From positions 1-47,848 of the IMG/VR virus record IMGVR_UViG_3300025674_007358: a stretch of 47,848 bases of DNA; one strand, given 5' to 3'. Position 1 is the stretch's first letter; each line of letters opens with the position of its first letter. The stretch comes from a virus (lineage: Duplodnaviria; Caudoviricetes). Positions 4,214 through 43,980 of the stretch are shown in pieces. The notes under the pieces were generated by a model, which saw only the letters and a list, made by a program, of their open reading frames with translations, had not been told where the DNA came from and ran no database searches. The position numbers and the translations under genes were made by a program.

Positions 4214-5233
4214 GTGGGAGTGTTTTTATTTGTTTTAGGATTCTTATCTTGTTACACTGACTACTCAATCGGTCAAGAGAAAAAAGTTATATCCGAAATA
4301 AAAGAAGTGGAAGTAACCGTAGAAGTTCCGGTTGAAACGGTTGTTGAGATTGAGGTTCCAGTTTATATAGAAGTCGAGGTTCCGGTCAACGAAGGCGAGA
4401 TCTGGATTGACTCATTTACTCAACATAACTCTATTGAAGGTATCGATATCTTATGGGTTATTGACCGTTCAGGCTCTATGCATATTTATAACTCGCAGTT
4501 GTTAGCCGGTATTGAAGCGATGTTATTGGCTCTTCCAACAAGCGACTGGCGCCTTGTAATGATTAGTGCCGATCCAAGAGACTCTGTTGTAAGTACTGAG
4601 TTTCCACTTATTCCGGGTGACGATGTAGTCGATGCAGCAGATATGATGTCTACATTAGGAAATGGAGCGTTAGAGGAAGGCTTTGAGTCGGTATTCCAAT
4701 ATATCGTTCTCAATCCTTACTCTTCAACTTGGATGCGACCAGAGGCTGGCTTGTTAGTTGTGTTTGTTTCTGATGAAGAAGAGCAAAGCAATGTTAGATA
4801 TCCATTAGCAATGGAATTTGTAAGTTGGTACCGCTCTTTGCGAGGCGGGTCGGTATTTATGGCTAGCATCGTAAACCATGAATTTGGTACCTCGTTATGC
4901 AGTTGGGCTGTTAGTCCATTAGATGTTGGAGAAAGATATATGGAAGCCACAAATGCTTTTGGTGGGGTTGTGGTAGATATCTGTGATTCTGATTGGTCTC
5001 CGGGCGTGACTGATGCGACACGCTCACTGGATCCAATAGAAAATATAAAATTAACCCACCAAGCAGAAGAGGACTCTATTAGAGTTTTCATCAACGGTTC
5101 TTTAAATTACGACTGGTACTACCAAGCATCAGATAACACAGTTTATTTCACTATTGTGCCATCTGGTGGTGATTTAGTCGAAGTCGGATATAGGTATATA
5201 GCAGCACCGGATACCGGTGATAGTGGCTTATAG
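4214..5233 (+). CDS. VWA (von Willebrand A) domain lipoprotein, myxobacterial type
   Basis: AGGAGG SD; lipobox-like FLSC; MIDAS motif DILWVIDRSGSM; VVFVSDEEEQS; VEVPV repeats; C-terminal DTGDSGL. Confidence 0.8.
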   Translation: MGVFLFVLGFLSCYTDYSIGQEKKVISEIKEVEVTVEVPVETVVEIEVPVYIEVEVPVNEGEIWIDSFTQHNSIEGIDILWVIDRSGSMHIYNSQLLAGIEAMLLALPTSDWRLVMISADPRDSVVSTEFPLIPGDDVVDAADMMSTLGNGALEEGFESVFQYIVLNPYSSTWMRPEAGLLVVFVSDEEEQSNVRYPLAMEFVSWYRSLRGGSVFMASIVNHEFGTSLCSWAVSPLDVGERYMEATNAFGGVVVDICDSDWSPGVTDATRSLDPIENIKLTHQAEEDSIRVFINGSLNYDWYYQASDNTVYFTIVPSGGDLVEVGYRYIAAPDTGDSGL

Positions 5234-7553: not shown

Positions 7554-9962
7554 ATGCTGTCTGATGAACAAATTCTAGCAAAAGCAGCCAAACTTTTAGA
7601 AAATTTAGACGAAGAATGGTCTAAGTCTGAAAGATCTAAGCGAAAAAGCAAATGCGACAACCCAAAAGGGTTTACAATGAAGCAATTTTGCAAAAATCAA
7701 CGCACAAGATCTAAAAAAGGCGAGAAAACTAACGAAACAATTGACCTTTATGAAGAAAAAGTGCTTCGCGAAGTTACCGAAGACGAAATGCGAGTGCTTG
7801 AAGACGTTTTAGACGACCTTGATCCAGCAAAACTGCCTTTAAATGACCTTTTTGGTGGTAAAATGCGTGTTGTTATACCGTTTCCAACGCTAGATCCCGA
7901 TTCAGACCTTGGAAAATTTGCAAAATTCTTCCGCGATCAAGAATATAAGGTAGATTGGGACAAAGGTATAGTCTCTGCCGAGCGAGATATACGAAATGGC
8001 GATGATTTGTTGAATTCTTTAATTGGCATCACCCAAGGACAGCCATCAGAGAAGAAAACCAAGAAAATTCAGATGAAAATTGGCAAATTATTCGCCAAAA
8101 TAGCCGATATTGGCAGAAAACTGAAAGAAATACAGAAAAATGACCCCGAATTTCAAAAAAATGAAGATTACAAGCGTCTAACACAACAAAGACTCTTATA
8201 TATTCCCAATCCCGGCATAGCTGGACCTGCGGGCTATGATTTAGAGGATTTAGCCACAAAATATGGTGAATACTGGCAGCAGAACGCCGCATACATCAAA
8301 AATAACATTAATGAGATTGATAATGACAAATATTCTATCATTATTAGCCGCCATCCAGTTGATATTCTCAGAATGAGCGACTTTGATAATATTACATCAT
8401 GCCACTCTCCAGCAAGTCGTTCAGGTGCCTACCAAGCATACTATAAATGCGCTGTAGCAGAAGCACAGGGTCATGGAGCCGTAGCATATGTGGTAGAGAC
8501 AGAAGATTTACTCTCGGAAACAAACACAGGCAATATTCAAAGCGCAGAACAAGAAATTCAAGAAGGTGAAGTCTTTTATGATGATAAAAGACCAATGGAA
8601 ACCGGAGATATACGTCCTATTTCTCGCACACGTATCCGTCATATGCGGTATTATGATACTCTTTCTCCAAAACGCTGGGATGATGGACAAGATATTGGTG
8701 TGCCAGAAAAACGTATTTATGGTGCTGCTATTCCGGGCATTAGAGAAAAAGTTGTTGATTGGGCAAGACAAACCCAAGAAGAAATCATTGCTAATATGCC
8801 AAAACAAGACGGCAAAATTGACTTAGATAGAGTTACTATGTTTGGTGGCTCTTATGAAGACACGTCTGGAACAACTGGACGCAGAGAACTTATGATGCAA
8901 CTAACGGGAATAACTGACGTTGATCAATTTGTAGGTTATATTGAACAAAACACCGAAACAGAAGATGAGTTAGACGCAGATTTACTTGGCGATATTCGCG
9001 CACAATATGAGCAAGAATGCAGCGAGATCGAAGAGAACTTTAATATGCGTATGGCTGCTTGCACTGTTAATTACGAAATTCAAGACGATGGTGATGATGG
9101 TGTTTATATTGTTGGTGGGGCTCAAATAAGAATTGTTTGGGACGCTGATGAATGGAGTAAACTTCCAAACTCGTGGGACAATGTTACTCAGCATTCGGTA
9201 AGTGCTATTAATGATATTTATGGTGATTTATTGTTGGACAATGTTTATCTGTCTATGGATCGAGGAAAAAACCAGATAGCGTGGGAATGTGCAATCAACA
9301 CAGAACACCCAGACTTAGGCGGAAGTTCATATTATGCACTTCCAGAAGAATTTCAAGAAATGTGTGAATCAGTTGATACAGTTGTTGACGACAAACGAGA
9401 TGCATTTGAAGAAATATTAACAAACTACTTTGCTCGCGAAGGATATATGCAAGGTGGCGCCTTTATTCAAATGGCTGTTGATATTGAAAACGGCGAGATC
9501 TCTTCATATGAATGGGATGTCGAAACCGATGGAGAATACGAAGATAGTTACGAAGTATATGCAAACCACTCACATTATTATGATCCAGAAGAATACAATA
9601 TCAATCCTGATGTATTAAACGATATTGTTGAGTCTCGCGACTTTAAAATTGCCTTGCGCAGTGCTTTGTTAGAATCACCACGAAAAGAAATAGATACACA
9701 ATATTTCTTACAAATGCGTTTAACAGCACAAGAAGTGGGAGGAGAAATCAAAGTTACCGTTACGTTTGTTACAAATCGTGATGAGCCTGACGAGATGACT
9801 GAATTATTTAAGACTCTTATCGAAGGTGAAATGGACGACGAAGATAATCTTAATGTAGTTTTCAAGAGAGTGTTGGCTCAATTTATAAAAGCACGCCAGC
9901 CGGCATTTATGCAAACAAACGAAAGCGTCGTTAAGAACTGGAAAAACTTCTTGGGCTCATGA
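7554..9962 (+). CDS. large acidic hypothetical protein (802 aa)
   Basis: Long ORF; N-terminal CDNPKGFTMKQFC module; internal ISRHPVDILRMSD..SCH; C-terminal NESVVKNWKNFL. Confidence 0.85.
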   Translation: MLSDEQILAKAAKLLENLDEEWSKSERSKRKSKCDNPKGFTMKQFCKNQRTRSKKGEKTNETIDLYEEKVLREVTEDEMRVLEDVLDDLDPAKLPLNDLFGGKMRVVIPFPTLDPDSDLGKFAKFFRDQEYKVDWDKGIVSAERDIRNGDDLLNSLIGITQGQPSEKKTKKIQMKIGKLFAKIADIGRKLKEIQKNDPEFQKNEDYKRLTQQRLLYIPNPGIAGPAGYDLEDLATKYGEYWQQNAAYIKNNINEIDNDKYSIIISRHPVDILRMSDFDNITSCHSPASRSGAYQAYYKCAVAEAQGHGAVAYVVETEDLLSETNTGNIQSAEQEIQEGEVFYDDKRPMETGDIRPISRTRIRHMRYYDTLSPKRWDDGQDIGVPEKRIYGAAIPGIREKVVDWARQTQEEIIANMPKQDGKIDLDRVTMFGGSYEDTSGTTGRRELMMQLTGITDVDQFVGYIEQNTETEDELDADLLGDIRAQYEQECSEIEENFNMRMAACTVNYEIQDDGDDGVYIVGGAQIRIVWDADEWSKLPNSWDNVTQHSVSAINDIYGDLLLDNVYLSMDRGKNQIAWECAINTEHPDLGGSSYYALPEEFQEMCESVDTVVDDKRDAFEEILTNYFAREGYMQGGAFIQMAVDIENGEISSYEWDVETDGEYEDSYEVYANHSHYYDPEEYNINPDVLNDIVESRDFKIALRSALLESPRKEIDTQYFLQMRLTAQEVGGEIKVTVTFVTNRDEPDEMTELFKTLIEGEMDDEDNLNVVFKRVLAQFIKARQPAFMQTNESVVKNWKNFLGS

Positions 9963-10561: not shown

Positions 10562-10856
10562 TGGCGATACCATCGATGCGCTCATAGACTTAGGTTTTGA
10601 TGTGTGGATTAAGAAGCGCATTCGATTATATGGTATTAACACGCCAGAAACCCGCACTAGAGACCTCGAAGAGAAAAAGGCAGGGTTAGCCGCAGAAGAA
10701 AGGTTAATCGAGATTCTGTGGGAATCTGGCAATGAATTTGTTTTAGAGTCTCACGGAGTTGGAAAATACGGAAGATGTTTGGGGGTACTATTTATCGGTG
10801 AAACCAACATTAACACTCTTTTATTAAGTGAGGGTTTGGCGGAGGAATATAAATGA
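10524..10856 (+). CDS. thermonuclease (SNase-like)
   Basis: RVIDGDTID...IRLYGINTPE...GKYGRCLG...NTLLLSEGLA; start re-called to ATG 10524. Confidence 0.9.
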   Translation: MYKYNAKLIRVIDGDTIDALIDLGFDVWIKKRIRLYGINTPETRTRDLEEKKAGLAAEERLIEILWESGNEFVLESHGVGKYGRCLGVLFIGETNINTLLLSEGLAEEYK

Positions 10857-11119
10857 AATTTTTCGTATCATTCTTTGCAACATTTTTGTTATTGCTTTTT
10901 TTGTCCAGCATCGCTGAGGCTAATGATGAAGAAGAACCAAAGGTTGTTTATAAAAAGAAAACTGAAATTGACTTTGAAGGTGTAGAAGTTGAAGGAACTC
11001 TAACAAAACCACAAGGGTCCTTGCTTTTAGAACGAAAACATGCTAAATTTAATCCTATGATTAAGTTGCGCACTGACTTTGACGATGAGATGGAACAATC
11101 TGTAAAGGAAGTAAAATGA
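10853..11119 (+). CDS. cglF: adventurous gliding motility protein CglF/GltF-like, secreted
   Basis: Signal peptide ending AEA; YKKKTEIDFEGVEVEGTLTKPQGSLLLERKHAKFNPMIKLRTDFDDEM matches the remembered CglF pattern (IDF...IEG.L.KP...R...F..LI..R..F..E). Confidence 0.75.
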   Translation: MKFFVSFFATFLLLLFLSSIAEANDEEEPKVVYKKKTEIDFEGVEVEGTLTKPQGSLLLERKHAKFNPMIKLRTDFDDEMEQSVKEVK

Positions 11120-11585
11120 AACTCCTACTTGAAAATTGGCGATTATATGTGGAATCACGTAAAAATGCAGTACGGATTCTTGATAATATACCTCGCTGGT
11201 CTATTGTACAAATGGGAGATGATCTGTTTTGGTTCTCCGGCACAAGTTTTACTCCCCTAGATCATATAGATATAGGTACCGGCGACGGAACTGCTGAAAG
11301 ATCGGCTCGGGACTGGCCGGGAGGAGTGATCCACATGAAAAGAGCAGAAATGCTTGATAACATAGAAGAGAATCCTAATTGGATAAAGGTGGTTTTAGAT
11401 CCCACCCAAGCAGAACAGATAATGTCTCAATTTAAATCACTTCGAGACCAAATAGAAAAAGATTATCTTAGCCGCGGCTGGAGGGGATATATGTTCACCG
11501 ACGAATACAAAAGAGATCATCCAGTCAATATTGATCTAAGCAGCTTAAAAGTTGAGCTAAAATGAAACTCCTACTTGAAAATTGG
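11112..11585 (+). repeat. 28-bp direct repeat spanning two gene starts
   Basis: TAAAATGAAACTCCTACTTGAAAATTGG at 11112-11139 and 11558-11585. Confidence 0.95.
11116..11565 (+). CDS. hypothetical protein with MKLLLENWR leader
   Basis: 149-aa ORF with ATGA overlaps at both ends. Confidence 0.75.
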   Translation: MKLLLENWRLYVESRKNAVRILDNIPRWSIVQMGDDLFWFSGTSFTPLDHIDIGTGDGTAERSARDWPGGVIHMKRAEMLDNIEENPNWIKVVLDPTQAEQIMSQFKSLRDQIEKDYLSRGWRGYMFTDEYKRDHPVNIDLSSLKVELK

Positions 11586-12167
11586 AGAAACTACATTTTA
11601 TTAGAAAACATTGAAACTGCTTCTAGACTTTCTATTTTTGATTTCGATGAAACGATTGCATTTACAACTGGATATATCAATGTTATCAATAAAGAAACTG
11701 GTAAGAAATTTCAAATTACCTCTCAAGAAGAATTTGATGAGTTGAAGACTGCTGGTGGTTATGAGTTTGACTTTTCACCGTTGGCTAAGGTAAACAACGC
11801 AGTAGAAAATCCAAACATAACCTCTATTATGCGTGATAGACTTAAAGATCCAAACACACAAGTCATGGTGCTGACTGCAAGAGATCCTGTGTCGGTTGAC
11901 GATATCCATATGACTTTACAAATGTTTGATAAACCAATGGATACTAAAAACGTTATCATTATTGGTAATAGTGGCGGCAATAAAGGCGAATACATCAGAG
12001 ATCTTGTGTTACCAAAATACAATAACATCAAAACAATAGAATTCTACGACGACTCAGATAAAAATATTAGCGACATGCTTGAACTAAAAAAAGAAACATC
12101 TGATAGTGGGCGTATTGAAAACTTCGACATTTATCACGTAGTCGAAGGAAAGCCAAATTTAAGCTAG
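11562..12167 (+). CDS. HAD-superfamily phosphatase-like protein with MKLLLENWR leader
   Basis: Motif I FDFDETI, motif II LTAR, motif III K (GNKG), motif IV FYDDSDKN. Confidence 0.8.
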   Translation: MKLLLENWRNYILLENIETASRLSIFDFDETIAFTTGYINVINKETGKKFQITSQEEFDELKTAGGYEFDFSPLAKVNNAVENPNITSIMRDRLKDPNTQVMVLTARDPVSVDDIHMTLQMFDKPMDTKNVIIIGNSGGNKGEYIRDLVLPKYNNIKTIEFYDDSDKNISDMLELKKETSDSGRIENFDIYHVVEGKPNLS

Positions 12168-12202: not shown

Positions 12203-12526
12203 ATGAACACCAACAATGGATGGGAAACCTACTCAAAGTTAGTCTTACAACAACTTGAAACCATGGCTAGTGGTATCGAGTCTCTGCGTACAGAATTACA
12301 AGATGTTAAAGAGCAGTTAACTGAACTAAAAGCCAAGGAAGATCGCGTACAAGATCTCAAGGCTTGGAAAGAAAAGATGGATGATGTTGCTTCTCCCCCA
12401 CAACTTAGAGAAGCACTTTTTGAACTTCAAGAGTTGAAAACCTTCAAGACAAGAGCAACCACAATATTCATGGTCGTACAAGCAGCAGTCGGTTTTGCTA
12501 TGGCTTGGATCATGGAATTGTTTTAG
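12203..12526 (+). CDS. coiled-coil protein with C-terminal TM helix
   Basis: Heptad pattern, then IFMVVQAAVGFAMAWIM. Confidence 0.7.
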   Translation: MNTNNGWETYSKLVLQQLETMASGIESLRTELQDVKEQLTELKAKEDRVQDLKAWKEKMDDVASPPQLREALFELQELKTFKTRATTIFMVVQAAVGFAMAWIMELF

Positions 12527-17990: not shown

Positions 17991-18347
17991 ATGACAGTAC
18001 AATCAAAGAAGATCACTACTAAATCTAAAAGTATAATTAAATTACTTAAAGATCAAAATAAAATCAATGATCAGTTATTAGTCTGTATTAATTCTTTATC
18101 TCTTGAAGATGTAATTGCTATCAAATTAGAATTGACTGCAAATAACATTAATAATAGGCTCTATGGTTTTGATATTTGGCGGGCATTACCTAACGTTGTA
18201 AAAGAAGCAACTCTGAAATTTGCTATCTCAACCACCAAGTCTAAAAAAGACGCTTCCAGATTTTTAGGCTTAACATACTTAGAATTCCTAAATATATGTA
18301 AGAAGTATCAAATTAATAACTTTTTTGATGCCTCTGATAAGGACTAA
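17991..18347 (+). CDS. Fis-type HTH protein
   Basis: C-terminal LKFAISTTKSKKDASRFLGLTYLEFLNICKKYQI resembles the Fis/HTH_8 pattern (AL...N...AA..LG.....L...KKY.I). Confidence 0.6.
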   Translation: MTVQSKKITTKSKSIIKLLKDQNKINDQLLVCINSLSLEDVIAIKLELTANNINNRLYGFDIWRALPNVVKEATLKFAISTTKSKKDASRFLGLTYLEFLNICKKYQINNFFDASDKD

Positions 18348-18351
18348 TATT

Positions 18352-18933
18352 ATGTTAATGACACTGCTAATGACTTTACTTGGGTGTGCTCCAGAAATGC
18401 AAGTTGAAGGAAGCGACACAGCACTTGGACCACTTCCATTACCTTTCATAGAATATGGAATTAATAAAACTGATATTTGCAGCCACGATCAATTAGGAGT
18501 CACAGTATGCGACTTCAAGTTCAATGATCAAAACGATGAACCTTGGAGACTATATGAGCACAAAGGAAAAGTTATTGTTTTAGACTTCTCGACTGCATGG
18601 TGTGGTCCTTGTCAAGCAGCAGGTCATTCTGCTCAGCCGGTTCAAGATGATTATAACGGAGAAGTAGTTGTGGTAACTTTAATGTTAGCCAACGTGTTGA
18701 ACATGCCTCCGACCTTGGAAGATGTGCAAGAGTGGGCAGAAGATCACGGAAATACTTCATCTCCAGTGTTGCAATCTCCAGCACATCAGGTTATAGATCC
18801 AAACGGGATAAATGGATATATTGTTCAGGGATATCCCACTTACATTTATTTAAACAGAGACATGGAAATTCATTTAGGTCATACAGGCTTCAGTGAAGAA
18901 TACATGCGAAACACTATCGACGAGTTATTATAA
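18352..18933 (+). CDS. TlpA/ResA-like thioredoxin-fold lipoprotein
   Basis: Lipobox LLGC; KGKVIVLDFSTAWCGPC; GYPT cis-Pro motif; start re-called to ATG 18352 after AAGGA. Confidence 0.85.
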   Translation: MLMTLLMTLLGCAPEMQVEGSDTALGPLPLPFIEYGINKTDICSHDQLGVTVCDFKFNDQNDEPWRLYEHKGKVIVLDFSTAWCGPCQAAGHSAQPVQDDYNGEVVVVTLMLANVLNMPPTLEDVQEWAEDHGNTSSPVLQSPAHQVIDPNGINGYIVQGYPTYIYLNRDMEIHLGHTGFSEEYMRNTIDELL

Positions 18934-19142
18934 TGTGGAAAGTATATAAAGAACATAATGGTTATGTACAAGGAGAGTTAGTAAGTAAACACTCCTCAGA
19001 GGCTGCTGCCCTAAAGGCGGCTGCTAAAAGTATAAAGTTTTCTTTTTCCGAAAAACAAAAAAAAGAGAAAGAAGTAATGATCTGGTTGGATGATGTGAAT
19101 CATTCTCCAATTGGTATCATAATAAAAAACAAAAGGGGATGA
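18933..19142 (+). CDS. hypothetical protein whose 3' end overlaps the tmRNA
   Basis: TAATG coupling with upstream gene; stop TGA 19140-19142 lies inside the tmRNA 5' end. Confidence 0.65.
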   Translation: MWKVYKEHNGYVQGELVSKHSSEAAALKAAAKSIKFSFSEKQKKEKEVMIWLDDVNHSPIGIIIKNKRG

Positions 19143-19471
19143 TTTGGCTTCGACAGGGCAGTGAAGAGGAATAGTGCAAGCAGGTTAGATACGACCTTAA
19201 CAGTTCAAAAATATTAGTTGCAAACAACAACAACCACTTTGAAGACGCTGTTCTTTTAGCAGCGTAATCAGGAGGCTGGTTAGAGCCTTCTTTCCAATCT
19301 AACCAAAACAACAGACAAGTTGTAAAAATCAAAAACTCAATGCAACAGGATGGTAAGCATTGTTTTATAACCATCTATCTTTGTCAGTAGGTGATAGAAA
19401 CTGACTATGCTTGTGAATGACTACAATTGGATTTGTTCTGGACGACGGTTCAATTCCGTCCATCTCCACCA
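19135..19471 (+). ncRNA. ssrA: tmRNA, tag peptide (A)ANNNNHFEDAVLLAA
   Basis: Acceptor GGGGATG 19135-41 pairs CATCTCC 19461-67 with G3-U; 3' ACCA; T-arm GACGG-TTCAATT-CCGTC; GGCTTCGAC near 5' end; resume GCA 19220 to TAA 19267. Confidence 0.97.
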
Positions 19472-25610: not shown

Positions 25611-25913
25611 ATGACTAACGAGCAAGCACAAACTGAAGCAACATTAATAAACGAAGCAGAACTAAATACGAGTCCTTTACCATCCATAATTGTTGAAAAA
25701 GACTCCGCCCTGAAGAGCTATTTAGTAGAGTATGTCGGTACGAAACTGAATAATGAATTGGTGACGGTAGAGATGATTACAGAAGTACTAGCAACAGAGT
25801 TCCCAGAATTTGTTATTAGTTTAGCAGAAGAGAATTTTTTACTGGGATATGAACAAGGGTTGAGCGATGCTGACGGATTACATTCAAGAAAAGCAGAAAC
25901 AGTTGAAGAGTAA
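25611..25913 (+). CDS. hypothetical protein
   Basis: AAGGAG SD then ATG 25611. Confidence 0.7.
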   Translation: MTNEQAQTEATLINEAELNTSPLPSIIVEKDSALKSYLVEYVGTKLNNELVTVEMITEVLATEFPEFVISLAEENFLLGYEQGLSDADGLHSRKAETVEE

Positions 25914-26556
25914 GTCCATGGACTTTTATACTCCGACTGGGTTACATGTATATATGCAACAACCAGTTGATGGTGTCGATGTGGAAGAAGTTATCCATAA
26001 AATGGAAACGGTATTGCCGCAACACTTCAGAGACGAGATAGAAATGATCATCTTTGGATGGTTTGATGAGTTTGAAGAGAGGAATATCAATGCATTCTAC
26101 AACGATAACGCAATATACGTCTCGCATCTACAAGATGATGCAGCCGACTTATACGATGACTTAATACACGAAATAGCACACTCTTTAGAAGAAGCATATG
26201 GATATGAGATATATGCCGACGAAGACATCAAAGATGAGTTCTTAAGAAAGAGAAAATACCTTCACGATGTTTTGTGGAAGTTAGGATACAGAGCCCCGCT
26301 GTCTTTTTTTGAAGATATAGAGTTCAACCAAGAGTTTGATGACTTCCTGTACAAGAAGATAGGGTACGATAAATTATCAACCATAATGTCTGGTATGTTT
26401 ATCAGCCCATACGCTGCGACTTCTCTGAGAGAATATTTTGCGACAGCCTTTACAGAGTACTTTTTGGACTCGAACCATGAGTTTTTAAAGAAGGTCTCTC
26501 CAGCAGCATTTTATAAAATTAATATGCTTAAAGATATGAAAGAGCTTGACTTTTAA
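25867..26556 (+). CDS. zincin-like metallopeptidase
   Basis: LIHEIAHS (HExxH); YAATSLREYFA third-ligand motif. Confidence 0.75.
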   Translation: MLTDYIQEKQKQLKSKSMDFYTPTGLHVYMQQPVDGVDVEEVIHKMETVLPQHFRDEIEMIIFGWFDEFEERNINAFYNDNAIYVSHLQDDAADLYDDLIHEIAHSLEEAYGYEIYADEDIKDEFLRKRKYLHDVLWKLGYRAPLSFFEDIEFNQEFDDFLYKKIGYDKLSTIMSGMFISPYAATSLREYFATAFTEYFLDSNHEFLKKVSPAAFYKINMLKDMKELDF

Positions 26557-27360: not shown

Positions 27361-28641
27361 ATGAAAAAGAAAAAAATACTGGTCTTATCTGACCATCCGC
27401 TTTCTCCTTCTGGAGTTGGAACACAAACTCGTTATATGATCGAAGCATTACTTAAGACCGGTCGATACGAGTTTGTTTGTTTAGGTGGCGCTATGAAGCA
27501 CCAAGACTACACACCAGTCAGGGTTGACCCATGGGGCGATGACTGGAGAATTTTTCCAGTAGATGGCTACGGGAACCATGAGATTGTAAGATCTATAATG
27601 CAAAAAGAAAGACCAGATGTACTTTGGTTTATGACTGATCCTCGTTTCTACGAGTGGCTCTGGGAGATCGAGAATGAAGTAAGAGCTAACGTACCGATGG
27701 TGTACTATCATGTTTGGGATAACTTCCCAGTACCACATTTTAACGCACGCTGGTACCGCTCAAATGATCATATTGCATGTATTTCTAAGGTTACTCACCA
27801 AGTTGTACAAGCAGCCGCGCCTGATGTTGATAGCACTTATCTCCCACATGCTGTCCCAAACACGGTATTCCGACCCGCTGAAACAGCAGAAGAAAAGGCT
27901 TCAGCGCAACAAATCAGACAACAGGTTTTTGATTCTAGTTCAATGAAGAACCCAAACAAGAAGATTTTCTTTTGGAACAGCAGAAATGCACGTAGAAAGC
28001 AAAGCGGAACACTTATTTGGTGGTTCAAAGAGTTTCTTGATGAAGTTGGGCACGATAAGGCATCCCTTTTGATGCACACAGATCCGCGAGATCCTCATGG
28101 ACAAGATTTGCCGCATATTATCGAACACCTTGGAATTACAGACGGTCAAGTTTTACTCTCGTCGCAGAAGGTTCCACCAGATGGTTTAGCATCTATGTAC
28201 CGTGCAGCAGACTACACTATTGGTATTAGTGATGCAGAGGGCTTCGGTTTATCAACTTTGGAGTCCCTGTCTAGTGGTACTCCTATCATTGTTAACATGA
28301 CTGGTGGGTTACAAGAGCAAGTTACTGATGGAAAGAACTGGTTTGGATGGGGAATTCAACCGGCTAGTAAGTCTATCATCGGCTCTTTGCAGGTTCCATA
28401 CATTTATGAGGACCGCATAAGCCAAGAAGACTTCAATAAGGTGATGAAAAGCGCACTTAAATTGACCGCTCCGAAATATAAAAAGATGGTCGAGGCGGGA
28501 CTGAAACACGTCAAAGATAACTATAGCTTTGAGAAGTATGAAACTTCATGGGTAAATTTAATGGATGAAATTATAGAAAAACACGGTTCTTGGGAAAACA
28601 GAACCAATCACAAAAGATGGTATCTCATGGAGGTGGCATAA
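27361..28641 (+). CDS. glycosyltransferase, GT4 / GT-B fold
   Basis: SGVGTQ; RNARRK; SDAEGFGLSTLESLSSGTPII. Confidence 0.88.
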   Translation: MKKKKILVLSDHPLSPSGVGTQTRYMIEALLKTGRYEFVCLGGAMKHQDYTPVRVDPWGDDWRIFPVDGYGNHEIVRSIMQKERPDVLWFMTDPRFYEWLWEIENEVRANVPMVYYHVWDNFPVPHFNARWYRSNDHIACISKVTHQVVQAAAPDVDSTYLPHAVPNTVFRPAETAEEKASAQQIRQQVFDSSSMKNPNKKIFFWNSRNARRKQSGTLIWWFKEFLDEVGHDKASLLMHTDPRDPHGQDLPHIIEHLGITDGQVLLSSQKVPPDGLASMYRAADYTIGISDAEGFGLSTLESLSSGTPIIVNMTGGLQEQVTDGKNWFGWGIQPASKSIIGSLQVPYIYEDRISQEDFNKVMKSALKLTAPKYKKMVEAGLKHVKDNYSFEKYETSWVNLMDEIIEKHGSWENRTNHKRWYLMEVA

Positions 28642-29945
28642 TGAAGAAAACTGTATTATTGAGAGGACCAGTTCTCAGCCGCTCCGGATACGGAGAGCAA
28701 ACTAGATTTGCTTTAAGAGCATTGCGCAGTCGCGAGGATATATTTGATATTTTTATTCATCCGCTCGGATGGGGACAAACCGGATGGGTTTCTTCTTCTG
28801 ATGAAGAAAGAAAGTGGATTGATCAAAAGATAGAGAAGACAATTAGTTACGTCCAAAATGGCGGTACGTTTGATATTTCTGTTCAATCTGCACTTCCTAA
28901 TGAGTTTGAGAAGCTGGCGACCACAAACATCGGTTACACTGCTGGAATAGAAACAACAAAGTGTGCGATAGAGTGGATAGATAAAGCAAATTCTTCTGTT
29001 GATGAGATAATTTTTGTTTCAAGTCACTCCAAGAATGTATACGACAACACAACTCATATTGTTGCCGTTAATGCTCAAGGGCAAGGAAAAGTAATTGAAA
29101 ATCAAAACGATCCGATACTGCAAGATCCCAATTTCCAACTTCGAGAAATGAGTTCAACCGTAGAGACGCACGCAGTAAATTACCCAGTTAAAAACTATGA
29201 CGATCTTAGTGCTCTAGATTTGAATCTAACCACCGATTATAATTTTGCTTGTGTTGCTCAGTTTGGACCCAGAAAGAACCTACAAAATACCATTGAGTGG
29301 TTCATTCAGGAATTCCATGACGATGCCGATGTGGGCTTGATAGTAAAGACTAATGTTGTTAAGAATAGTCTCATTGATAGAGAAGCATGTGAGGGTCGTC
29401 TAAAAGGAATAACGTCAAAATATCCAGATAAGAAGTGTAAAATATACCTTCTCCATGGCGATATGACTGATAAGGAGATGCACGAAATTTATTTAAATGA
29501 TAAAGTATTCGCTGCCCTATCTCTAACACATGGTGAAGGCTTTGGTCTTCCGTTGTTTGAAGCAGCTTATATGGGTGTTCCTGTAATCGCCCCAGGCTGG
29601 TCAGGGCAAATGGATTTCTTGTGTGATGAAAATGGAAAAGAACATTTCTATAATGTTGCGTTCGATTTGAATCCTGTGCAAGAAGAGGCGGTTTGGCAAG
29701 GTGTTATTCTTAAAAATTCAATGTGGGCATATGCTCGTGAGACCTCCGCAAAAGAAAAGATGCGCGCATGCTACAATGACGCTAAAGAAGGCAAGCTAGA
29801 TGAATATCAGCAATATGCTGAAGCCCTTAAAGAAAGATTCAACGAGAGCAAGATGTACGAACAATTTATTGCGGCTATGGATGTTGAAGCTTCCTTTAAC
29901 GTTGAGTCTTGGTTGAATGATTTAGATATCGAAGAAATGGAATGA
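28641..29945 (+). CDS. glycosyltransferase, GT4 / GT-B fold
   Basis: SRSGYG; PRKNL; HGEGFGLPLFEAAYMGVPVI; start re-called to ATG 28641. Confidence 0.88.
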   Translation: MKKTVLLRGPVLSRSGYGEQTRFALRALRSREDIFDIFIHPLGWGQTGWVSSSDEERKWIDQKIEKTISYVQNGGTFDISVQSALPNEFEKLATTNIGYTAGIETTKCAIEWIDKANSSVDEIIFVSSHSKNVYDNTTHIVAVNAQGQGKVIENQNDPILQDPNFQLREMSSTVETHAVNYPVKNYDDLSALDLNLTTDYNFACVAQFGPRKNLQNTIEWFIQEFHDDADVGLIVKTNVVKNSLIDREACEGRLKGITSKYPDKKCKIYLLHGDMTDKEMHEIYLNDKVFAALSLTHGEGFGLPLFEAAYMGVPVIAPGWSGQMDFLCDENGKEHFYNVAFDLNPVQEEAVWQGVILKNSMWAYARETSAKEKMRACYNDAKEGKLDEYQQYAEALKERFNESKMYEQFIAAMDVEASFNVESWLNDLDIEEME

Positions 29946-30778
29946 AAATAGTATTTGTCGCTGACTTCTTTGCTGATCAAGTGCTTGGCGGCGGAGAACT
30001 AAACAACGAGGAGCTAATAAATATACTAGTTTCACAAGGACACTCTGTAGAGAAAGTTAATAGCCATGTTGTAACAAGCGAATTCGTTGAACAAAGAAAA
30101 GATCACAAGTTTGTAATTGCTAACTTTGTAGCACTTCCTCATGGAGCCAAAGAACTGTTTTATGATAAGCAGTATATAATATACGAGCATGATCACAAGT
30201 ATTTAAGCACCCGCAATCCGGGTGTTTTTCCTAATTTCAAAGCACCAAGCGAGCACGTCATTAATTTGGAATTTTATCAGAACGCCAAAGCAGTATTGTG
30301 TCAGTCGGCATTCCATACAGACATCGCACTAAAGAACACAAATCTAACAAACCTTGTAAATCTTGGTGGAAACATATGGGACATAGACTCATTGAACTTT
30401 GTATCCGAACAAGCCGATGTAGAAAAAAACGGTAGATACGCTATAATGAATTCAAACATAAGACACAAGAATACCGCTGGTGCAATAAAGTTTTGTAATG
30501 CAAAGGGATATGATTACACTTTGATCCAAAGTGGAGAATACAAGCAGTTTCTCAAAGCAATGGGAGAAAACAAGTCGCTAGTATTCCTTCCAGAAACCCC
30601 AGAAACGCTTTCTAGGATAGTTGTAGAGGCTCGGATGATGAATATGGGGATTGTTACCAATAAGTTAATAGGAGCCGCTAGCGAGCCTTGGTACGCTCTT
30701 AAAGGGCACGAACTGATAGAAGTGATGAAACAAAAGAGAAGTGAAATAACAAACAAGGTTTTGGAGAGTTTAAAATGA
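29942..30778 (+). CDS. putative glycosyltransferase (GT-B)
   Basis: GGGELNN; HD; PETLSRIVVEARMM. Confidence 0.7.
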   Translation: MKIVFVADFFADQVLGGGELNNEELINILVSQGHSVEKVNSHVVTSEFVEQRKDHKFVIANFVALPHGAKELFYDKQYIIYEHDHKYLSTRNPGVFPNFKAPSEHVINLEFYQNAKAVLCQSAFHTDIALKNTNLTNLVNLGGNIWDIDSLNFVSEQADVEKNGRYAIMNSNIRHKNTAGAIKFCNAKGYDYTLIQSGEYKQFLKAMGENKSLVFLPETPETLSRIVVEARMMNMGIVTNKLIGAASEPWYALKGHELIEVMKQKRSEITNKVLESLK

Positions 30779-31743
30779 AAAAAGAAAAAGTTTATTGCCT
30801 TGACTATAATCAACATGCCGGTAAATGGATATATGATGGATATCAAAGTGCTTGGGAACACCTTGGCTACGAATTACAAGTCGGGAGAGATTCTGAAAAT
30901 TCTCAAACGACCTGCCTTTCTCTGATCCCGACCAACTCTGAACTATTAAGCGAAGAGTATTACATGATGTCTGTTGCCTCGCTTTTTGGAGATTCTGATA
31001 GTATTAAAGCCCTACAGCATTCGAAAAAATCGTTTTTGTTTGTACAGCCAAAAGTATTTCCAGAACCATGGGGAAGACACCCAAACTATGTTTGCAATCT
31101 TGAGCAGCAATGGGTTGATGAGATAAGTAAATTAGATAATGTTATTCTGTGGACATTTACAAATGTTAGTGAAGAAGGCCAGCAAAAGTATTTTACTCAA
31201 TGGGATAAAAAAATACACACTTTCCCATTAGCATTTGACTCTATCAACTATAAGCCACAAGAAGTTGAGAAAATGAAACAGTTCGATATATGTTTCGTTG
31301 GCGGTTGGGCGGACAATGGTTTTAATGAGAAAAGAAAGATAATTTTAGATATCTTCAAGAGCTTTATGGAAACTGATTTAAAGTGTGGTTTTTTCGTAAA
31401 CAAAAATCTGACTCACCAACAAGAATGTAATCTTTTAGCAAATAGCAAGCTGACACTGAATATTCATGATGCTTATCAAAGAGTTCTTGGATACGATACA
31501 AACGAGAGGACGTTTAAGTCTTTGGGTCTTAACGGGCTCATGGTATCAGACACGGTCGGACAGTTGAACCAAATATTTCCAGATGTAAGGACAAGTTTGG
31601 AACCAAAGCAACTCGTAGAAATTACGAAAGAAATATTAGCAATGCCGGAAAATGATAGAGAAGAGTTGCGTCAAAAGAACAAAGATGATATATTAAAGAA
31701 CCACACCTATGTGAACAGGCTGCAAGAGATGCTGAAAATATGA
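30775..31743 (+). CDS. CgeB-like glycosyltransferase
   Basis: FDICFVG; LNIH...NERTF; HTYVNR. Confidence 0.75.
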   Translation: MKKEKVYCLDYNQHAGKWIYDGYQSAWEHLGYELQVGRDSENSQTTCLSLIPTNSELLSEEYYMMSVASLFGDSDSIKALQHSKKSFLFVQPKVFPEPWGRHPNYVCNLEQQWVDEISKLDNVILWTFTNVSEEGQQKYFTQWDKKIHTFPLAFDSINYKPQEVEKMKQFDICFVGGWADNGFNEKRKIILDIFKSFMETDLKCGFFVNKNLTHQQECNLLANSKLTLNIHDAYQRVLGYDTNERTFKSLGLNGLMVSDTVGQLNQIFPDVRTSLEPKQLVEITKEILAMPENDREELRQKNKDDILKNHTYVNRLQEMLKI

Positions 31744-32474
31744 GTCCCAAAGTAACCATCATAATACCTTGCTATAACTCAGAGAAGTGGATCGAAGAAT
31801 GTATCATGTCTGCGCTAAACCAAACTTATGATAACAAAGAAGTAATTTTTGTTGATAATGAAAGTTCCGATTCAAGTTTAGAAATAGCAAAAAGAATACA
31901 AGAAACTCACAAAGAATTAGTAGTCGAGACAGCAGAAAACATCTACAAACATTCTTATCAGGAACCAGTAGAAAAGGCGCTGAGTATTTCGACCGGTGAA
32001 TATGCAACAATATTGGGATCTGATGACTTCATCGATGAAGACTATATAAAAAATATAGCCGAAATTTTAAGCAAGTCTGATAAAATTTCCGTATTACAGT
32101 CTCCGGTAAGGGGCGTGAAGGGCGTAGAAAAAACATTTGTAGGGGAGATCTCACATTCTTATAAAAATCTGCAACAGTTTAAAGAACAGCTTTTCATTCG
32201 ATGCCCAGTAACGACACCGACGATAGTGTTTAAAAAATCTTTGTATGATAGTGGAATTGTTAGATGGAAGTCAGAAGAATACCTTGGCGCATGCGACTAT
32301 GAGCTATATTTTAACTTGACAGATAATAATGTTTTCATATATCCTTTTCCGAAATGGATTGGGTACTACTATAGATGGCACGAAGATCAGTGTACTTGGG
32401 GAATGCACAAAGAAAAAACTAACTTCGATCAAAAAATCAAAGACTATTGGAGAAACAAGTGGACACAAACTTAA
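31740..32474 (+). CDS. glycosyltransferase, GT2
   Basis: VTIIIPCYN; VDNESSD; LGSDD. Confidence 0.9.
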   Translation: MSPKVTIIIPCYNSEKWIEECIMSALNQTYDNKEVIFVDNESSDSSLEIAKRIQETHKELVVETAENIYKHSYQEPVEKALSISTGEYATILGSDDFIDEDYIKNIAEILSKSDKISVLQSPVRGVKGVEKTFVGEISHSYKNLQQFKEQLFIRCPVTTPTIVFKKSLYDSGIVRWKSEEYLGACDYELYFNLTDNNVFIYPFPKWIGYYYRWHEDQCTWGMHKEKTNFDQKIKDYWRNKWTQT

Positions 32475-33067
32475 CAGAAGAAGACTTGAGAAATTTTGAA
32501 TTAGAAATATTTGATTTATTCAAGAATAAAAAAATTCATTCTCCAATCCATTTGCGTGGCGGAAACGAGAAACAGTTAATAGAAATTTTCAAAAATATAA
32601 AACACGAAGATTATTGTTTTGCGACTTGGGCTAGCCATTTAGAATGTTTATTGAAAGGCGTTCCAAGAGAAGAATTAAAGAAAGCAATATTGAAAAATAA
32701 ATCTATTTGCCTATCTTTTAAAGAATACAATATTTTGTCTTCTGCAATTGTTGGTGGAAATGCGCCGATCGCCGTTGGTATAGCAAAAGGCTTGAAGATG
32801 AAAGGTTCAACTCAACACGTATGGTGTTTCGTGGGCGATATGTCGTTCTATACAGGTAGCGTACAGGAAAGTTTAAGGTACGCAGAAGTACATGACTTAC
32901 CAATTACTTTTGTGGTAGCTAATAATCACAAAAGCGTTGAAACGCCGACAGAAGAAGTGTGGGGTAATGATATTAAGGAACTTGCAATTAACTCAAAGAA
33001 ATGCATCTATTATGAATATGAAAACCATTTCCCTCATGCTGGAATTGGAGAGAAGGTATTATTTTAA
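32447..33067 (+). CDS. TPP-dependent enzyme, E1 alpha-like subunit
   Basis: PIHLRGGNE; SAIVGG; TPP motif GDMS...ESL...VVANN. Confidence 0.85.
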   Translation: MEKQVDTNLTEEDLRNFELEIFDLFKNKKIHSPIHLRGGNEKQLIEIFKNIKHEDYCFATWASHLECLLKGVPREELKKAILKNKSICLSFKEYNILSSAIVGGNAPIAVGIAKGLKMKGSTQHVWCFVGDMSFYTGSVQESLRYAEVHDLPITFVVANNHKSVETPTEEVWGNDIKELAINSKKCIYYEYENHFPHAGIGEKVLF

Positions 33068-33600
33068 TGACTAACTTAAACTACGCAGAAGAATTAAACA
33101 AAGCAATGTCTTATCTTTCTGAACAGGAAGATACCATTTTTCTTGGACAAAGCATGGTATATGGAGGAATTGCTATCGCTAATTCATTTAACTCTATACC
33201 TTTGGAAAAAAGAATTGAGATGCCTGTCGCAGAAAACCTACAGTTAGGCATCTCAACTGGAATGGCGTTAACGGGTTATATCCCGATATCCGTGTATCCA
33301 AGATGGAACTTTTTGATCTTGGCATCAGACCAGTTGGTGAATCATTTAGACAAACTTTCGGAAATGACTTTGGGGCAATATAAGCCAAAAGTAATTATAA
33401 GAGTGGCAGTCGGAGTAACAAAGCCGGTGGATCCACAAGAACAGCATGTTGGAGACTTTACAGAAGGTTTTCAGAAAATTGTAAAGAATATTAATATTGT
33501 GAAGCTAGAAAAGGCAGAACAAGTTATGGAAGAATACATCAAGGCGTACACACGCACAGATGGAGTTTCGACTATTCTAGTAGAAGAACATCAGTTTTAA
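33067..33600 (+). CDS. TPP-dependent enzyme, E1 beta-like (pyrimidine-binding domain only)
   Basis: EMPVAENLQLGISTGMALTG; DQLVN; QH; 177 aa, no C-terminal domain. Confidence 0.8.
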   Translation: MTNLNYAEELNKAMSYLSEQEDTIFLGQSMVYGGIAIANSFNSIPLEKRIEMPVAENLQLGISTGMALTGYIPISVYPRWNFLILASDQLVNHLDKLSEMTLGQYKPKVIIRVAVGVTKPVDPQEQHVGDFTEGFQKIVKNINIVKLEKAEQVMEEYIKAYTRTDGVSTILVEEHQF

Positions 33601-33601
33601 A

Positions 33602-34507
33602 ATGAAGATACTGTTAGTAGCAAATAAAACTATCAGAGGAAACCCAGATAGTATTTCTTGGTATTTCGCAGACCCGATGAAAAGTCTTGGGCATGAGGTG
33701 TATTTTTACGACACTGTTAGCGGCGATCCATCTGGTACTTTTACATCAGTTCTAGAGAGCTTTAAACCAGATCTGGTGTTCTGTATTACAACAGGAAACC
33801 AAAACATGACGCCATATGAGCCATGGGAAGAACTTCTTAAGGAAACGAAGTCTGGTCGAACTAAAACATTTAATTGGTTCTGTGATGATACATGGAGATT
33901 TGACAACTTTTCTTCAAAAGCATGCGAGAACTTCACGGTGTGTTCGACTCCAGAGAGGAGCCACTTACAAAAATACAAAGAAATAGGTTACGACAATATT
34001 ATATTAGCCAATTGGCATGCTCCTTCTGAGTATTTTCCAAGTGTAAAATTTCAAGATAAGAAATTTGAAACTACTTTTATTGGTAGACTTTCGCAACAAA
34101 GAATAAAGTTTCTTGAAAAAACAAAAGTAAAAATACAAGTCATACACAACTTAACTCAGGAACAAATGTTTCATGCATTTTCAAATACAAAATTTGGAAT
34201 CAACCTATCAGTAAACTACAATGATCCAGAACTGAAAACACAAATGAAACAAAGAATATTTGAAACTACCGCTGGTGCTGGGTTGCTTGTTACTGAATAT
34301 CACCCCGGTATAGAAGAATACTTTGAGATAGATAAAGAAATAATAACGTTCGAAACAACAGAAGAGTTTAGAGAAAAAGTTACTTTCTTACAAAACAAAC
34401 CACAAATAGCTGAGAAGCTAGCAAAAGCAGGTCATGAAAGGTTTTTGAAAGAACATGACTCAAAGATAAGACTAAGCAGAGTATTAGAAGAGATAATGGG
34501 AATATGA
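33602..34507 (+). CDS. CgeB-like glycosyltransferase
   Basis: WFCDDTWRF; QMKQRIFE; IAEKLAKAGHERFLKEH. Confidence 0.8.
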   Translation: MKILLVANKTIRGNPDSISWYFADPMKSLGHEVYFYDTVSGDPSGTFTSVLESFKPDLVFCITTGNQNMTPYEPWEELLKETKSGRTKTFNWFCDDTWRFDNFSSKACENFTVCSTPERSHLQKYKEIGYDNIILANWHAPSEYFPSVKFQDKKFETTFIGRLSQQRIKFLEKTKVKIQVIHNLTQEQMFHAFSNTKFGINLSVNYNDPELKTQMKQRIFETTAGAGLLVTEYHPGIEEYFEIDKEIITFETTEEFREKVTFLQNKPQIAEKLAKAGHERFLKEHDSKIRLSRVLEEIMGI

Positions 34508-35352
34508 ATGTTTTAATCACCGGAGGAAAGGGTTTTCTTGCAAAAGAGATGGTGCGCTATTTTTCGGACAAAAAACAATACACCTTGATGGTCACTGATA
34601 GAAGCACGCTAGATCCTACAGATTATGAGAATGTAAAAGATTTTTTTGATAATGTAACCGTAGATGTTGTTATACACACTGCTGTTAAGGGTGGAAAGCG
34701 TGGGCATTTCGATAACACAAGTAATTTTTTTGATAATATTGCAATGTTTGATAATTTATCAAAATTCTCAAACAAGTTTCAAGTAATGTTTAATTTTGGT
34801 TCTGGTGCTGAATTTGATAGAAGGTTTGATATCAAAAATTCTATAGAGACAGATGTTTTTAAATCAAATCCTGTGGACATGTATGGTTTATCAAAAAATT
34901 TAATAACTAGAAGAATATACGAACTTGATACCAATATCTATAACTTAAGATTATTTGGATGTTTTGGGGTACATGAAGAACCACAAAGGTTGTTTAAAAC
35001 ATGTTATGAAAACTTTGCAAAGGGAATAAACGCGAATATAACCCAAGATAAGTATATGGACTATTTTTACGCACAGGATATCGGTCGTGTTATCGAGTAC
35101 ATCATTGCAAACCACGACATATGGGAAATGTCACCGGACTTTAATCTGTGTTACAGAGAAAAATACAAACTAAGCGAGCATGCTGCAATGATAAAAAGAT
35201 TGACAAATAACACCGAAGATGTTATTATTAAGTCTAACGAGATTGCATATTCCTATACCGGAGATAATTTTCTTCTGGAAGAATTAAATATCGAACTCGT
35301 TGGACTAGAAAAGGGTATAAAAGAATGTCTGAAAAATTGGAGCAAATCCTAA
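34504..35352 (+). CDS. NAD-dependent epimerase/dehydratase/reductase
   Basis: ITGGKGFLA; GSGAEF; YGLSK. Confidence 0.85.
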   Translation: MNVLITGGKGFLAKEMVRYFSDKKQYTLMVTDRSTLDPTDYENVKDFFDNVTVDVVIHTAVKGGKRGHFDNTSNFFDNIAMFDNLSKFSNKFQVMFNFGSGAEFDRRFDIKNSIETDVFKSNPVDMYGLSKNLITRRIYELDTNIYNLRLFGCFGVHEEPQRLFKTCYENFAKGINANITQDKYMDYFYAQDIGRVIEYIIANHDIWEMSPDFNLCYREKYKLSEHAAMIKRLTNNTEDVIIKSNEIAYSYTGDNFLLEELNIELVGLEKGIKECLKNWSKS

Positions 35353-36665
35353 ACTTAGTTTCTGAGTATGTTGCTGAGAAGCAAGAAAACGAGAAGTGGA
35401 TACCCGGTCAAGACTGGGTTTCTTATTCTGGACCGGTCTTTGACGATAAGGAATATCTTGCGGCTATTAGGCAAGTGCTTGACGGTTGGATGATCTTTGG
35501 AAAGAACGCAAGTGAGTTCGAGCAAAAGTTTCCATCAAAGCTTGGAAAATTGTACGGAGCACTCACAAACTCCGGAAGCTCCGCCAACCTTCTTATGGTT
35601 GCAGCTACAAAGTCCAATAGATTCAAGAAACAACTGAAAGACGGTGATAAAATCATTACACCAGTTGTTTGTTTTCCGACAACCATCAACCCCATCATCC
35701 AAAACAATTTGGTTCCAGTATTTGTAGATGTTGAGTTGCCCAGTGTTAACTTGGACCTCGACAAAGTTGAGGAAGCCCTTGAGGCAGACCCAAGCATCCG
35801 AGGAATTATGTTTGCTCATGTTCTTGGAAACCCGCCAGACATGGACCGCTTGATGGCGCTTATTGAAAAGTATGATCTTGTCTTTTTAGAAGATGCCTGT
35901 GATGCTCTTGGTTCTTATTACGACGGTAAGAAACTTGGTTCGTTTGGCGATATGTCTACTTGCTCTTTCTTCCCTGCTCACCACATGACGATGGGTGAAG
36001 GTGGTTTTATCGCAACAAACAGTTTGAGGACAAAGACTATTCTTGCTAGTGTTCGTGACTGGGGTCGTGCTTGTTATTGCAACACGCAGAAGCCCGGAAA
36101 CGTAACAAGCGCGACAGCATGCGGAAACAGGTTTAAGAACTGGTTGCCGGGGCTTAAGGAAGCCGTGTATGATCATCGCTATGTCTTTGACGAAATTGGA
36201 TATAACCTCAAGCCGCTTGATTTACAGGCTGCAATGGGTCTGCAACAGCTTGATAAGCTTGAGATGCTAGATAGTGCTCGTAGGGTTAACTGGGAGAAGA
36301 TGAAGCAAATATTCGCCCCTTACGAGCGTTTCTTTCACATTCCAGAAGCAACAGAAAAGTCTGATCCTTGCTGGTTTGCTTTTCTTCTGACTGTAAAAGA
36401 GGATGCACCGTTCTCCAGAAGCGATATTGTTGAGCACCTAGAAAGCTTCAAGATCCAAACAAGATCTTATTTCTCTGGAAACATTCTTGCTCACCCCGGT
36501 TACATACACATGGCTGAGGAGTATGGCGACATGAACGTTACATTCCCTAATGCTCAGTTGGTTACAACCAACTCATTCTTCTTGGGGACATATGCTGGTC
36601 TGACTGACGAGAAGATTCAGTATATCAAGGAAGCGGTTGATGGTTTTTTGGGAGACTTTGAGTGA
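35325..36665 (+). CDS. rfbH: NDP-4-keto-6-deoxyglucose 3-dehydratase (RfbH/DdhC, DegT family)
   Basis: NSGSSANLL; EDACDALGS; SFFPAHHMTMGEGG (His in place of the PLP Lys); RDWGRACYC; YDHRY. Confidence 0.88.
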   Translation: MSEKLEQILNLVSEYVAEKQENEKWIPGQDWVSYSGPVFDDKEYLAAIRQVLDGWMIFGKNASEFEQKFPSKLGKLYGALTNSGSSANLLMVAATKSNRFKKQLKDGDKIITPVVCFPTTINPIIQNNLVPVFVDVELPSVNLDLDKVEEALEADPSIRGIMFAHVLGNPPDMDRLMALIEKYDLVFLEDACDALGSYYDGKKLGSFGDMSTCSFFPAHHMTMGEGGFIATNSLRTKTILASVRDWGRACYCNTQKPGNVTSATACGNRFKNWLPGLKEAVYDHRYVFDEIGYNLKPLDLQAAMGLQQLDKLEMLDSARRVNWEKMKQIFAPYERFFHIPEATEKSDPCWFAFLLTVKEDAPFSRSDIVEHLESFKIQTRSYFSGNILAHPGYIHMAEEYGDMNVTFPNAQLVTTNSFFLGTYAGLTDEKIQYIKEAVDGFLGDFE

Positions 36666-37612: not shown

Positions 37613-37615
37613 ATA

Positions 37616-43954: not shown

Positions 43955-43980
43955 GTGAAAGACAAAAAGGATAAGCCTGG

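Follow-up and report, generated by a model that had tools for sequence, protein, structure and literature searches.

An intact, conserved and optional GltF-family gene in a large uncultured T4-like phage

The gltF gene and its neighborhood

The DNA analyzed here, called the window, is the whole 47,848-nucleotide stretch of virus record IMGVR_UViG_3300025674_007358, and Table 1 lists its features. An intact, stand-alone gltF gene was found on the + strand at the positions given by the initial annotation, and its start and stop each overlap the adjoining genes by ATGA. The motif that the annotation had quoted is present letter for letter at residues 33-79 of the protein.

Table 1. Features of the window (positions count from its first nucleotide)
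Feature	Position	Strand	Evidence or remark
vWA/MIDAS lipoprotein-like gene, paralogues in candidate hosts	4214..5233	+	second host-envelope-type gene
802-aa protein; conserved anchor on the upstream side of the variable cassettes	7554..9962	+	
Shine-Dalgarno-like GGAGG, 7 nt 5' of the gltF ATG	10841..10845	+	sequence
gltF/cglF homologue, 88 aa	10853..11119	+	NF033764 E 3.2e-16, 59.1 bits; dN/dS
Likely type I signal peptide, gltF residues 1-23	10853..10921	+	sequence, hydropathy
gltF residues 29-50, predicted contact arm for GltG of the host (C-terminal TonB-like domain)	10937..11002	+	complex model
gltF residues 51-65, middle stretch without confident contact in the model	11003..11047	+	complex model
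gltF residues 66-88, arm and C-terminal helix, predicted in the GltC crevice	11048..11116	+	complex model
107-aa coiled-coil protein, hydrophobic C-terminus, conserved downstream anchor/marker	12203..12526	+	
tmRNA	19135..19471	+	tag start ANNNNHF shared with candidate hosts G008 and G011

The proposed homology to CglF/GltF was borne out by the NCBIfam profile NF033764 (gliding_CglF), which phage GltF matched significantly over profile positions 17-87 of 88, so that the lack of profile similarity which the annotation had named as grounds for dropping its claim was not found. In all, 522 of the 526 candidates collected were GltF homologues, a match beyond chance. The phage protein also has the family traits: a length of 88 residues against about 89, a type I signal-like N-terminus as judged by inspection and, in a low-confidence model, a mostly disordered chain with a C-terminal helix. 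Since its score lies under the curated 90-bit equivalog cut-off of NF033764, phage GltF was not classed as a gliding protein. That cut-off is narrow: in a Myxococcota sample, 188 of 251 genomes matched the profile and only 3 of the 251 reached 90 bits, and cellular copies borne in operons scored 57-68 bits. Searches of the Pfam and PHROG profiles with phage GltF gave no match, and no GltF match was found in 50,697 GenBank phage records.

The protein had been described as secreted, and its N-terminus agrees with this by inspection of the sequence, from which the signal peptide was called: Lys2 is followed by a hydrophobic core (maximum 8-residue hydropathy, 2.99) and by A-E-A at positions 21-23, and a lipobox Cys is absent. 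Alignment A1 has 10 viral rows, each with a hydrophobic N-terminus, and CglF of Myxococcus xanthus has a type I signal (PMC3325183). Phage GltF is likely to be exported to the periplasm of an infected Myxococcota cell. A scan for promoters and terminators stayed at chance level (26 against 28.6; 9 against 6.9). Contigs from RNA libraries covered gltF in one run, in a relative with a shorter signal region; this was not counted as expression because the coverage extended over the whole stretch (27, 20, 15 and 9 of 30 bins), which leaves DNA carry-over possible.

A second gene of host-envelope type encodes a vWA/MIDAS protein with a DxSxS motif, predicted to form a vWA/integrin-I-like fold with a small beta domain (pLDDT 89; Foldseek E 9e-8, TM about 0.5); no related solved structure was found by sequence. 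The gene occurs in 30 viral loci, each of five candidate hosts has two to four paralogues at 25-31% identity, and the protein is possibly a phage-borne adhesin. In a second phage group, a Flp/Tad-like pilin gene, recognized by weak Pfam matches under the cut-off, lies near gltF in 9 viral loci (L085:5731-5934, L109:5177-5389 and 7 more), and these pilins are 77-93% identical; the pilin was not found in the window or in the two related records described below. Positions 27361-45860 of the window hold a sugar cluster of about 18 kb that encodes glycosyltransferases, nucleotide-sugar epimerases, aminotransferases and GDP-mannose dehydratase-like proteins, and this cluster is longer than that of the complete relative G002. 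The window also encodes an exported host-type thioredoxin-like (ResA/TlpA) lipoprotein at 18325-18933, with similar genes in the cassette region of relatives, and a zinc-metalloprotease-like protein at 25867-26556 with weak matches under the cut-off to Pfam ATLF and Peptidase_M90.

Phage origin, distribution and candidate hosts

Of the 71 proteins of the window that were scanned against PHROG, none is a head or tail protein, and the window carries a long sugar-pathway cluster and a tmRNA, as might be expected if the contig were cellular or chimeric. However, a second virus record, G001, equals window positions 20497-47848 at 99.995-100% identity and runs on beyond the overlap into genes for a baseplate wedge, RuvC, primase and SbcCD; PHROG matches were obtained for 4 of the 13 proteins scanned. 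In addition, the 187-kb record G002, rated complete, encodes a GltF homologue and shares with the window the order of genes for a HAD hydrolase, HNH, PhoH, an exonuclease and glycosyltransferases; its gene set includes terminase, portal, prohead protease, capsid, sheath, tube and baseplate. The window was assigned to a T4-like myovirus through the syntenic G002 and the baseplate wedge of G001, and independent assemblies repeat its gene order. The phage origin claimed for the contig is thereby upheld; a cellular chromosome, which would have overturned the initial annotation, is refuted in practice, and we regard a cellular or chimeric contig as extremely improbable.

We then compared gltF loci found by alignment search, keeping the best 80 of 94 stretches from IMG/VR and the best 80 of 123 from the genome collection. 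A GltC, GltD, GltE, GltG or GltH homologue within at most 5 kb on each side was found in 0 of these 80 viral loci and in 79 of the 80 genome loci, the sole exception being L188, a phage-like contig in a genome bin; in a smaller earlier genome set, 12 of 13 gltF loci had glt neighbors. The GltG tail domain was found in none of five virus records, one of them complete. The phage copies of gltF therefore stand alone, without other glt genes. Because gltF was also found in viral contigs with unrelated neighborhoods (some of these loci have only 0-1 homologues of proteins of the window, G001 or G002, and a GC content of up to 0.57), the gene is not confined to close phage relatives.

In the relatives of the window, gltF lies in a cassette region whose slot contents vary. 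An independent marker was provided by the 107-aa gene downstream (80 of 99 loci kept): gltF was present in 23 and absent at the site in 44 of the 67 loci spanning from the upstream anchor to the marker; these 67 include near-identical contigs, and one further contig, L398, carries gltF just beyond its locus. In a set of five relatives, searched without a positive control, 0 of 3 complete and 0 of 2 partial records had gltF (0/5). Since the gene is missing from 44 of the 67 spanning loci and from all three of these complete relatives, it is dispensable for the phage cycle. The marker tree had 46 rows, with duplicates merged and without L398 and the four loci that have no anchoring motif (L368, L387, L390 and L392); on it, gltF presence required 10 changes, 7 of them forced by well-supported branches, and a single gltF clade was rejected (p-AU 3e-48).

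The retained copies are under purifying selection. Among 25 copies of the window clade, the median dN/dS was 0.08 and the maximum 0.22, calculated from the 99 of 300 pairs with dS of 0.1-2, and synonymous sites were near saturation. No broken gltF was found among the best 80 of 94 viral loci, bar one copy cut by a contig end.

Many genes of the cassette slots begin with MKLLLENW. In the window, two such gene starts form a 31-nt direct repeat (97%) at 11112-11142 and 11558-11588, and L004 does not have the 149-aa gene between the repeats, which a contig in run X2 also skips; because of these losses, the shared start is likely to be a recombination site. Many otherwise unrelated proteins begin MKLLLENW...LxE (window 11116 and 11562, and many related loci). 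Capsid-targeting leaders of T4 are cut by the prohead protease, and by analogy this start suggests that the proteins may be packaged internal proteins. The cassette region of one relative without gltF has IscU-like and IscA-like iron-sulfur assembly genes, as judged by inspection (L386:6135-6850).

The best cellular matches to phage GltF (G007, G008, G009, G011 and G269) belong to one GTDB family, among the best 80 of 123 loci, and are 64-74% identical to the phage protein over residues 9-88; the nearest is 80% identical over 61 mature-core residues (12 of 61 differ). Record titles in this group include Myxococcota XB_MAG53, Deltaproteobacteria UBA2957 and SAT32. We take this family to belong to class UBA796. 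Within it, 15 of 16 genomes match GltF, and the four copies tested also score under the NF033764 cut-off (57-59 bits). The nearest cellular gltF sits in a gltC-D-E-F-G-H operon, in a single glt cluster near rplC; in G011 the single cluster consists of two barrels and GltC, D, E, F, G and H, with names assigned from homologous loci. The phage DNA has a GC content of about 0.39, with an AT-rich gltF, against 0.52-0.61 in the nearest cells; at the glt loci of further family members the value is 0.43-0.47. A second, divergent gltF that has no glt neighbor within 1.5 kb is common among members of this candidate-host family (L260-L270; G010 and G260-G268).

A phylogeny with host copies had been proposed, and in it the viral GltF copies fell within the candidate-host group, apart from 29 other Myxococcota rows. 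Two quick trees joined the window clade to three or four candidate-host cells (SH-aLRT 92-94), while a careful tree of 87 thinned rows neither recovered nor rejected (p-AU 0.34) a clade uniting the window copies with four of these cells. The GltF trees have 61 columns and are unstable; the distant paralogues L035 and L041, the truncated L014 and, in some trees, outgroup rows were left out, the careful tree was also built without L252 and L258, and L188 was counted as viral in two trees. They need 4-6 changes, which might point to several independent captures of gltF, yet a single viral origin was not rejected (p-AU 0.29 and 0.17), and either one or several captures would fit.

The phage is likely to infect an aquatic Myxococcota lineage, to judge from these sequence relationships. 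The annotation had named Myxococcota and Bdellovibrionota as the groups with homologues and had taken the gene as a pointer to the host. A Myxococcota host is supported, the closest cellular copies belonging to one Myxococcota family; Bdellovibrionota is not established, and both hits in genomes so labeled have another likely origin. One of them, L131, is a 64% GC locus grouping with Myxococcota copies; the other, L188, looks viral, with a gltF and a GH46 glycosidase like those of the viral locus L109. The tmRNA was also considered as a host marker. The pattern that codes for the tag start was found in 4 genomes among 401 of the phylum, in tmRNAs in every case, but 3 of these 4 genomes differ in the tag ending, leaving a weak hint, and the whole tmRNA gene gave weak matches in 2 of 301 genomes. 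The tmRNAs of the window and of G002 (L049:9954-10285) resemble each other, and their tag starts are host-like.

The label of a gliding-motility protein is not established. In addition to the score of 59.1 bits against a cut-off of 90, the adhesin CglB gave one weak partial match in the five incomplete candidate-host genomes, and Glt-type machines also serve spore-coat assembly (PMC3858216). Matches to GltJ in the candidate hosts were weak and partial (best 52 bits against 450); these genomes hold several GltJ/GltG-like tails. The profile of TraA, part of the TraAB outer-membrane exchange by which Cgl proteins pass from cell to cell, matched 0 of 5 in a search without a positive control, and motor genes of the generic MotA/TolQ/ExbB type were found in 5 of 5.

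Predicted complex with GltG and GltC

Mature phage GltF modeled alone with AF2 gave a mean pLDDT of 62 and a pTM of 0.20, with one helix at residues 76-85, and no related solved structure was found by sequence. GltF of M. xanthus is likewise predicted to be disordered with a C-terminal helix (PMC11761067). In the published AlphaFold model of the M. xanthus proteins, a GltF strand lies in the TonB-like domain of GltG, the C-terminal helix lies in a crevice of GltC, and GltD makes contact between the two arms (PMC11761067); that paper itself states that biochemical evidence for the periplasmic complex is lacking.

The complex modeled here consisted of phage GltF 25-88, GltC 140-626 of G011 and the 105-aa GltG tail of G011. 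The score was 0.84 (0.83-0.85 between runs) against 0.46 for the best of three controls, in which GltC was replaced; replacement of the partner gave 0.00 twice, and the 0.46 may reflect the remaining GltG contact. The runs agreed in at least 84% of contacts, with a partner pLDDT of at least 63. Of 157 solved complexes, 116 attained the mark set for this score, as did 2 of 215 mismatched pairs; these counts apply only roughly to a three-chain job with its own alignments. The predicted interface comprises phage GltF 29-50 and 66-88, GltG 5-39 and 88-105, and GltC 261-565; the best-defined pairs join GltC to phage GltF residues 73-84, and the assignment of residues 29-50 to GltG is a reading of the interface residue lists. 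Because a close cousin of the true partner tends to pass such a test, the result shows a retained interface rather than binding in the cell. The contact with Glt proteins proposed by the initial annotation thus agrees with the complex prediction, in which phage GltF would bridge host GltG and GltC as published for M. xanthus.

Comparison with the nearest cellular copy showed 19 of 22 identical residues in the GltG arm, 10 of 15 in the middle stretch and 17 of 20 contact residues in the GltC arm. Column conservation in 57 viral and 66 cellular rows was 0.78 and 0.78 for the GltG arm, 0.73 and 0.78 for the middle, and 0.74 and 0.84 for the GltC arm. By analogy with the published model, residues 51-65 may touch GltD (PMC11761067).

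Possible roles of the phage GltF

The docking predicted on both host partners suggests that the phage puts its own part into the host machine, and phage GltF very probably engages the GltF site of that machine in some form. The reading that we favor, at a probability of about 0.42, is that phage GltF is a working spare part that keeps an Agl-Glt-type envelope machine of the host coupled during infection. The gene would have been captured from a host glt operon and its product exported by Sec into the host periplasm, where the N-terminal arm would lie on the TonB-like GltG domain and the C-terminal helix in the GltC crevice, so that the protein occupies the GltF site and bridges host GltG and GltC. 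This assumes that, once the host is shut off, so small and largely disordered a linker would run short, and that phage yield would gain from a machine that keeps running, be it for movement on surfaces, contact with prey or transport at the cell surface. In M. xanthus, GltF is found at focal adhesions and is required for GltD clustering (PMC3169522; PMC4488436). Paralogous Glt-type machines build spore coats, and Agl-Glt/Nfs machines move surface glycans (PMC3858216). The position of the nearest cellular gltF in a glt operon and the lack of decay of either arm in viruses are in favor of a working part; the somewhat lower conservation of the GltC arm in viruses than in cells is against it.

The same predicted binding would also allow excess or altered phage GltF to fill GltG and GltC separately, uncoupling the motor from the outer-membrane platform and thereby closing entry to competing phages or halting the cell; we hold this tentatively, as a possibility to be taken seriously. 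The scattered presence of gltF is what would be expected of a conflict gene, and in the other phage group gltF lies near the Flp-like pilin gene. There are precedents: g3p of filamentous phages binds the C-terminal domain of TolA and excludes superinfection, and T5 Llp and Cor block FhuA. On the other hand, both GltF arms are retained, and all three parts of the copy stay host-like under selection. The sole candidate for an inactivating change, at Glu49 (found in 81 of 84 rows from the genome collection but in 25 of 59 viral rows), was dropped because more distant cellular copies also vary there. A role of Glt proteins as receptor of this phage found no support in this analysis. The initial annotation had suggested a decoy, but the conservation of both binding arms and of the middle is at least equally compatible with a working part, and no one-armed decoy was seen among the sequences. 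A working spare part is slightly favored over jamming or exclusion because both arms are kept; over-produced GltF saturating GltG and GltC separately would fit the data as well as a working part does, and patchy presence fits either.

We consider it unlikely that surface parts made by the phage, such as the vWA/MIDAS lipoprotein or glycans from the sugar cluster at 27-46 kb, are instead joined by phage GltF to host GltG/GltC or to a different TonB-like domain (AgmX/PglI type), which would alter the load that the machine carries. The integrin I/vWA-like fold of that lipoprotein, its occurrence in the 30 viral loci, a weak match of all 38 aligned rows to the profile of the MIDAS adhesin of Bdellovibrio, the several GltJ/GltG-like tails of the candidate hosts and the transport of surface glycans by Agl-Glt/Nfs machines (PMC3858216) would agree with such re-targeting, but the vWA gene is also present in complete relatives without gltF, and its product is only 25-31% identical to the host paralogues. 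It is more improbable still that gltF is a passenger without benefit to the phage, or is used apart from Glt, for example in the virion. Its optional presence in a recombination-rich cassette region would suit a passenger; a dN/dS of about 0.08 with near-saturated synonymous sites, the near absence of broken copies, the preserved signal-like N-terminus and the spread of gltF to viral contigs with unrelated neighborhoods all argue against it.

Among known proteins, phage GltF most resembles GltF of M. xanthus, which is the same as CglF (MXAN_4868; NF033764; 89 aa) and has a type I signal, as the phage protein probably does; the likeness covers profile positions 17-87 of 88, the disorder with a C-terminal helix and the predicted GltG-GltC bridge (PMC11761067). 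The two were compared through the NF033764 profile only, and the phage copy differs in being phage-encoded, alone and optional, with 59 bits against 90. The candidate-host GltF lies in the single glt cluster near rplC, whereas the phage copy is AT-rich and shows 12 differences in the 61-residue core. A paralogous linker, NfsF, belongs to the Nfs machine for the spore coat of M. xanthus, and the candidate-host cluster resembles the nfsA-H arrangement (PMC3858216).

Like Ff g3p acting on TolA, T5 Llp and Cor, phage GltF would be a small exported phage protein acting on an energized envelope system; unlike them, it is a copy of a host subunit and keeps both host interfaces. To our knowledge, the known phage genes acting on motility or on Ton/Tol systems are inhibitors unrelated to host parts. 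Cyanophage psbA, an auxiliary gene replacing a labile host subunit, is likewise host-derived, under purifying selection and optional among related T4-like phages, but its target is metabolism, whereas that of phage GltF would be a mechanical envelope machine.

The view that such a gene had not been described in a phage agrees with our search: no report of a phage GltF/CglF was found in the literature, with subscription papers mostly outside its scope, and we have found no phage-borne GltF-family gene in print. The term cglF is absent from the main text of a myxophage preprint whose supplements could list one (bioRxiv 10.64898/2026.09.14.751636); the accessible part of PMC13035462 mentions motility auxiliary genes and names none, and a term search of the available text of PMC8940887 for such a gene gave no match. 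Few viruses have been recovered for class UBA796 (bioRxiv 10.64898/2026.09.14.751636).

A broader idea, which we regard as doubtful, is that aquatic phages infecting uncultured Myxococcota are equipped with a kit of parts from host surface machines: the GltF linker, the integrin-like vWA lipoprotein and, in other lineages, the Flp pilin. Just as speculatively, this kit would keep or steer the adhesion and prey-contact machinery of the infected cell, so that the host moves or feeds for the phage. If so, these would be auxiliary genes for mechanical behavior rather than for metabolism. A host-like structural subunit of a force-transducing envelope machine, kept by purifying selection in several phage groups, would differ in strategy from the known inhibitors. 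Spacer matching largely misses the hosts of a large family of uncultured T4-like phages, for which the gltF gene may also serve as a host marker, and phage GltF provides a natural variant for probing the GltG-GltF-GltC bridge in M. xanthus, which so far has only been modeled.
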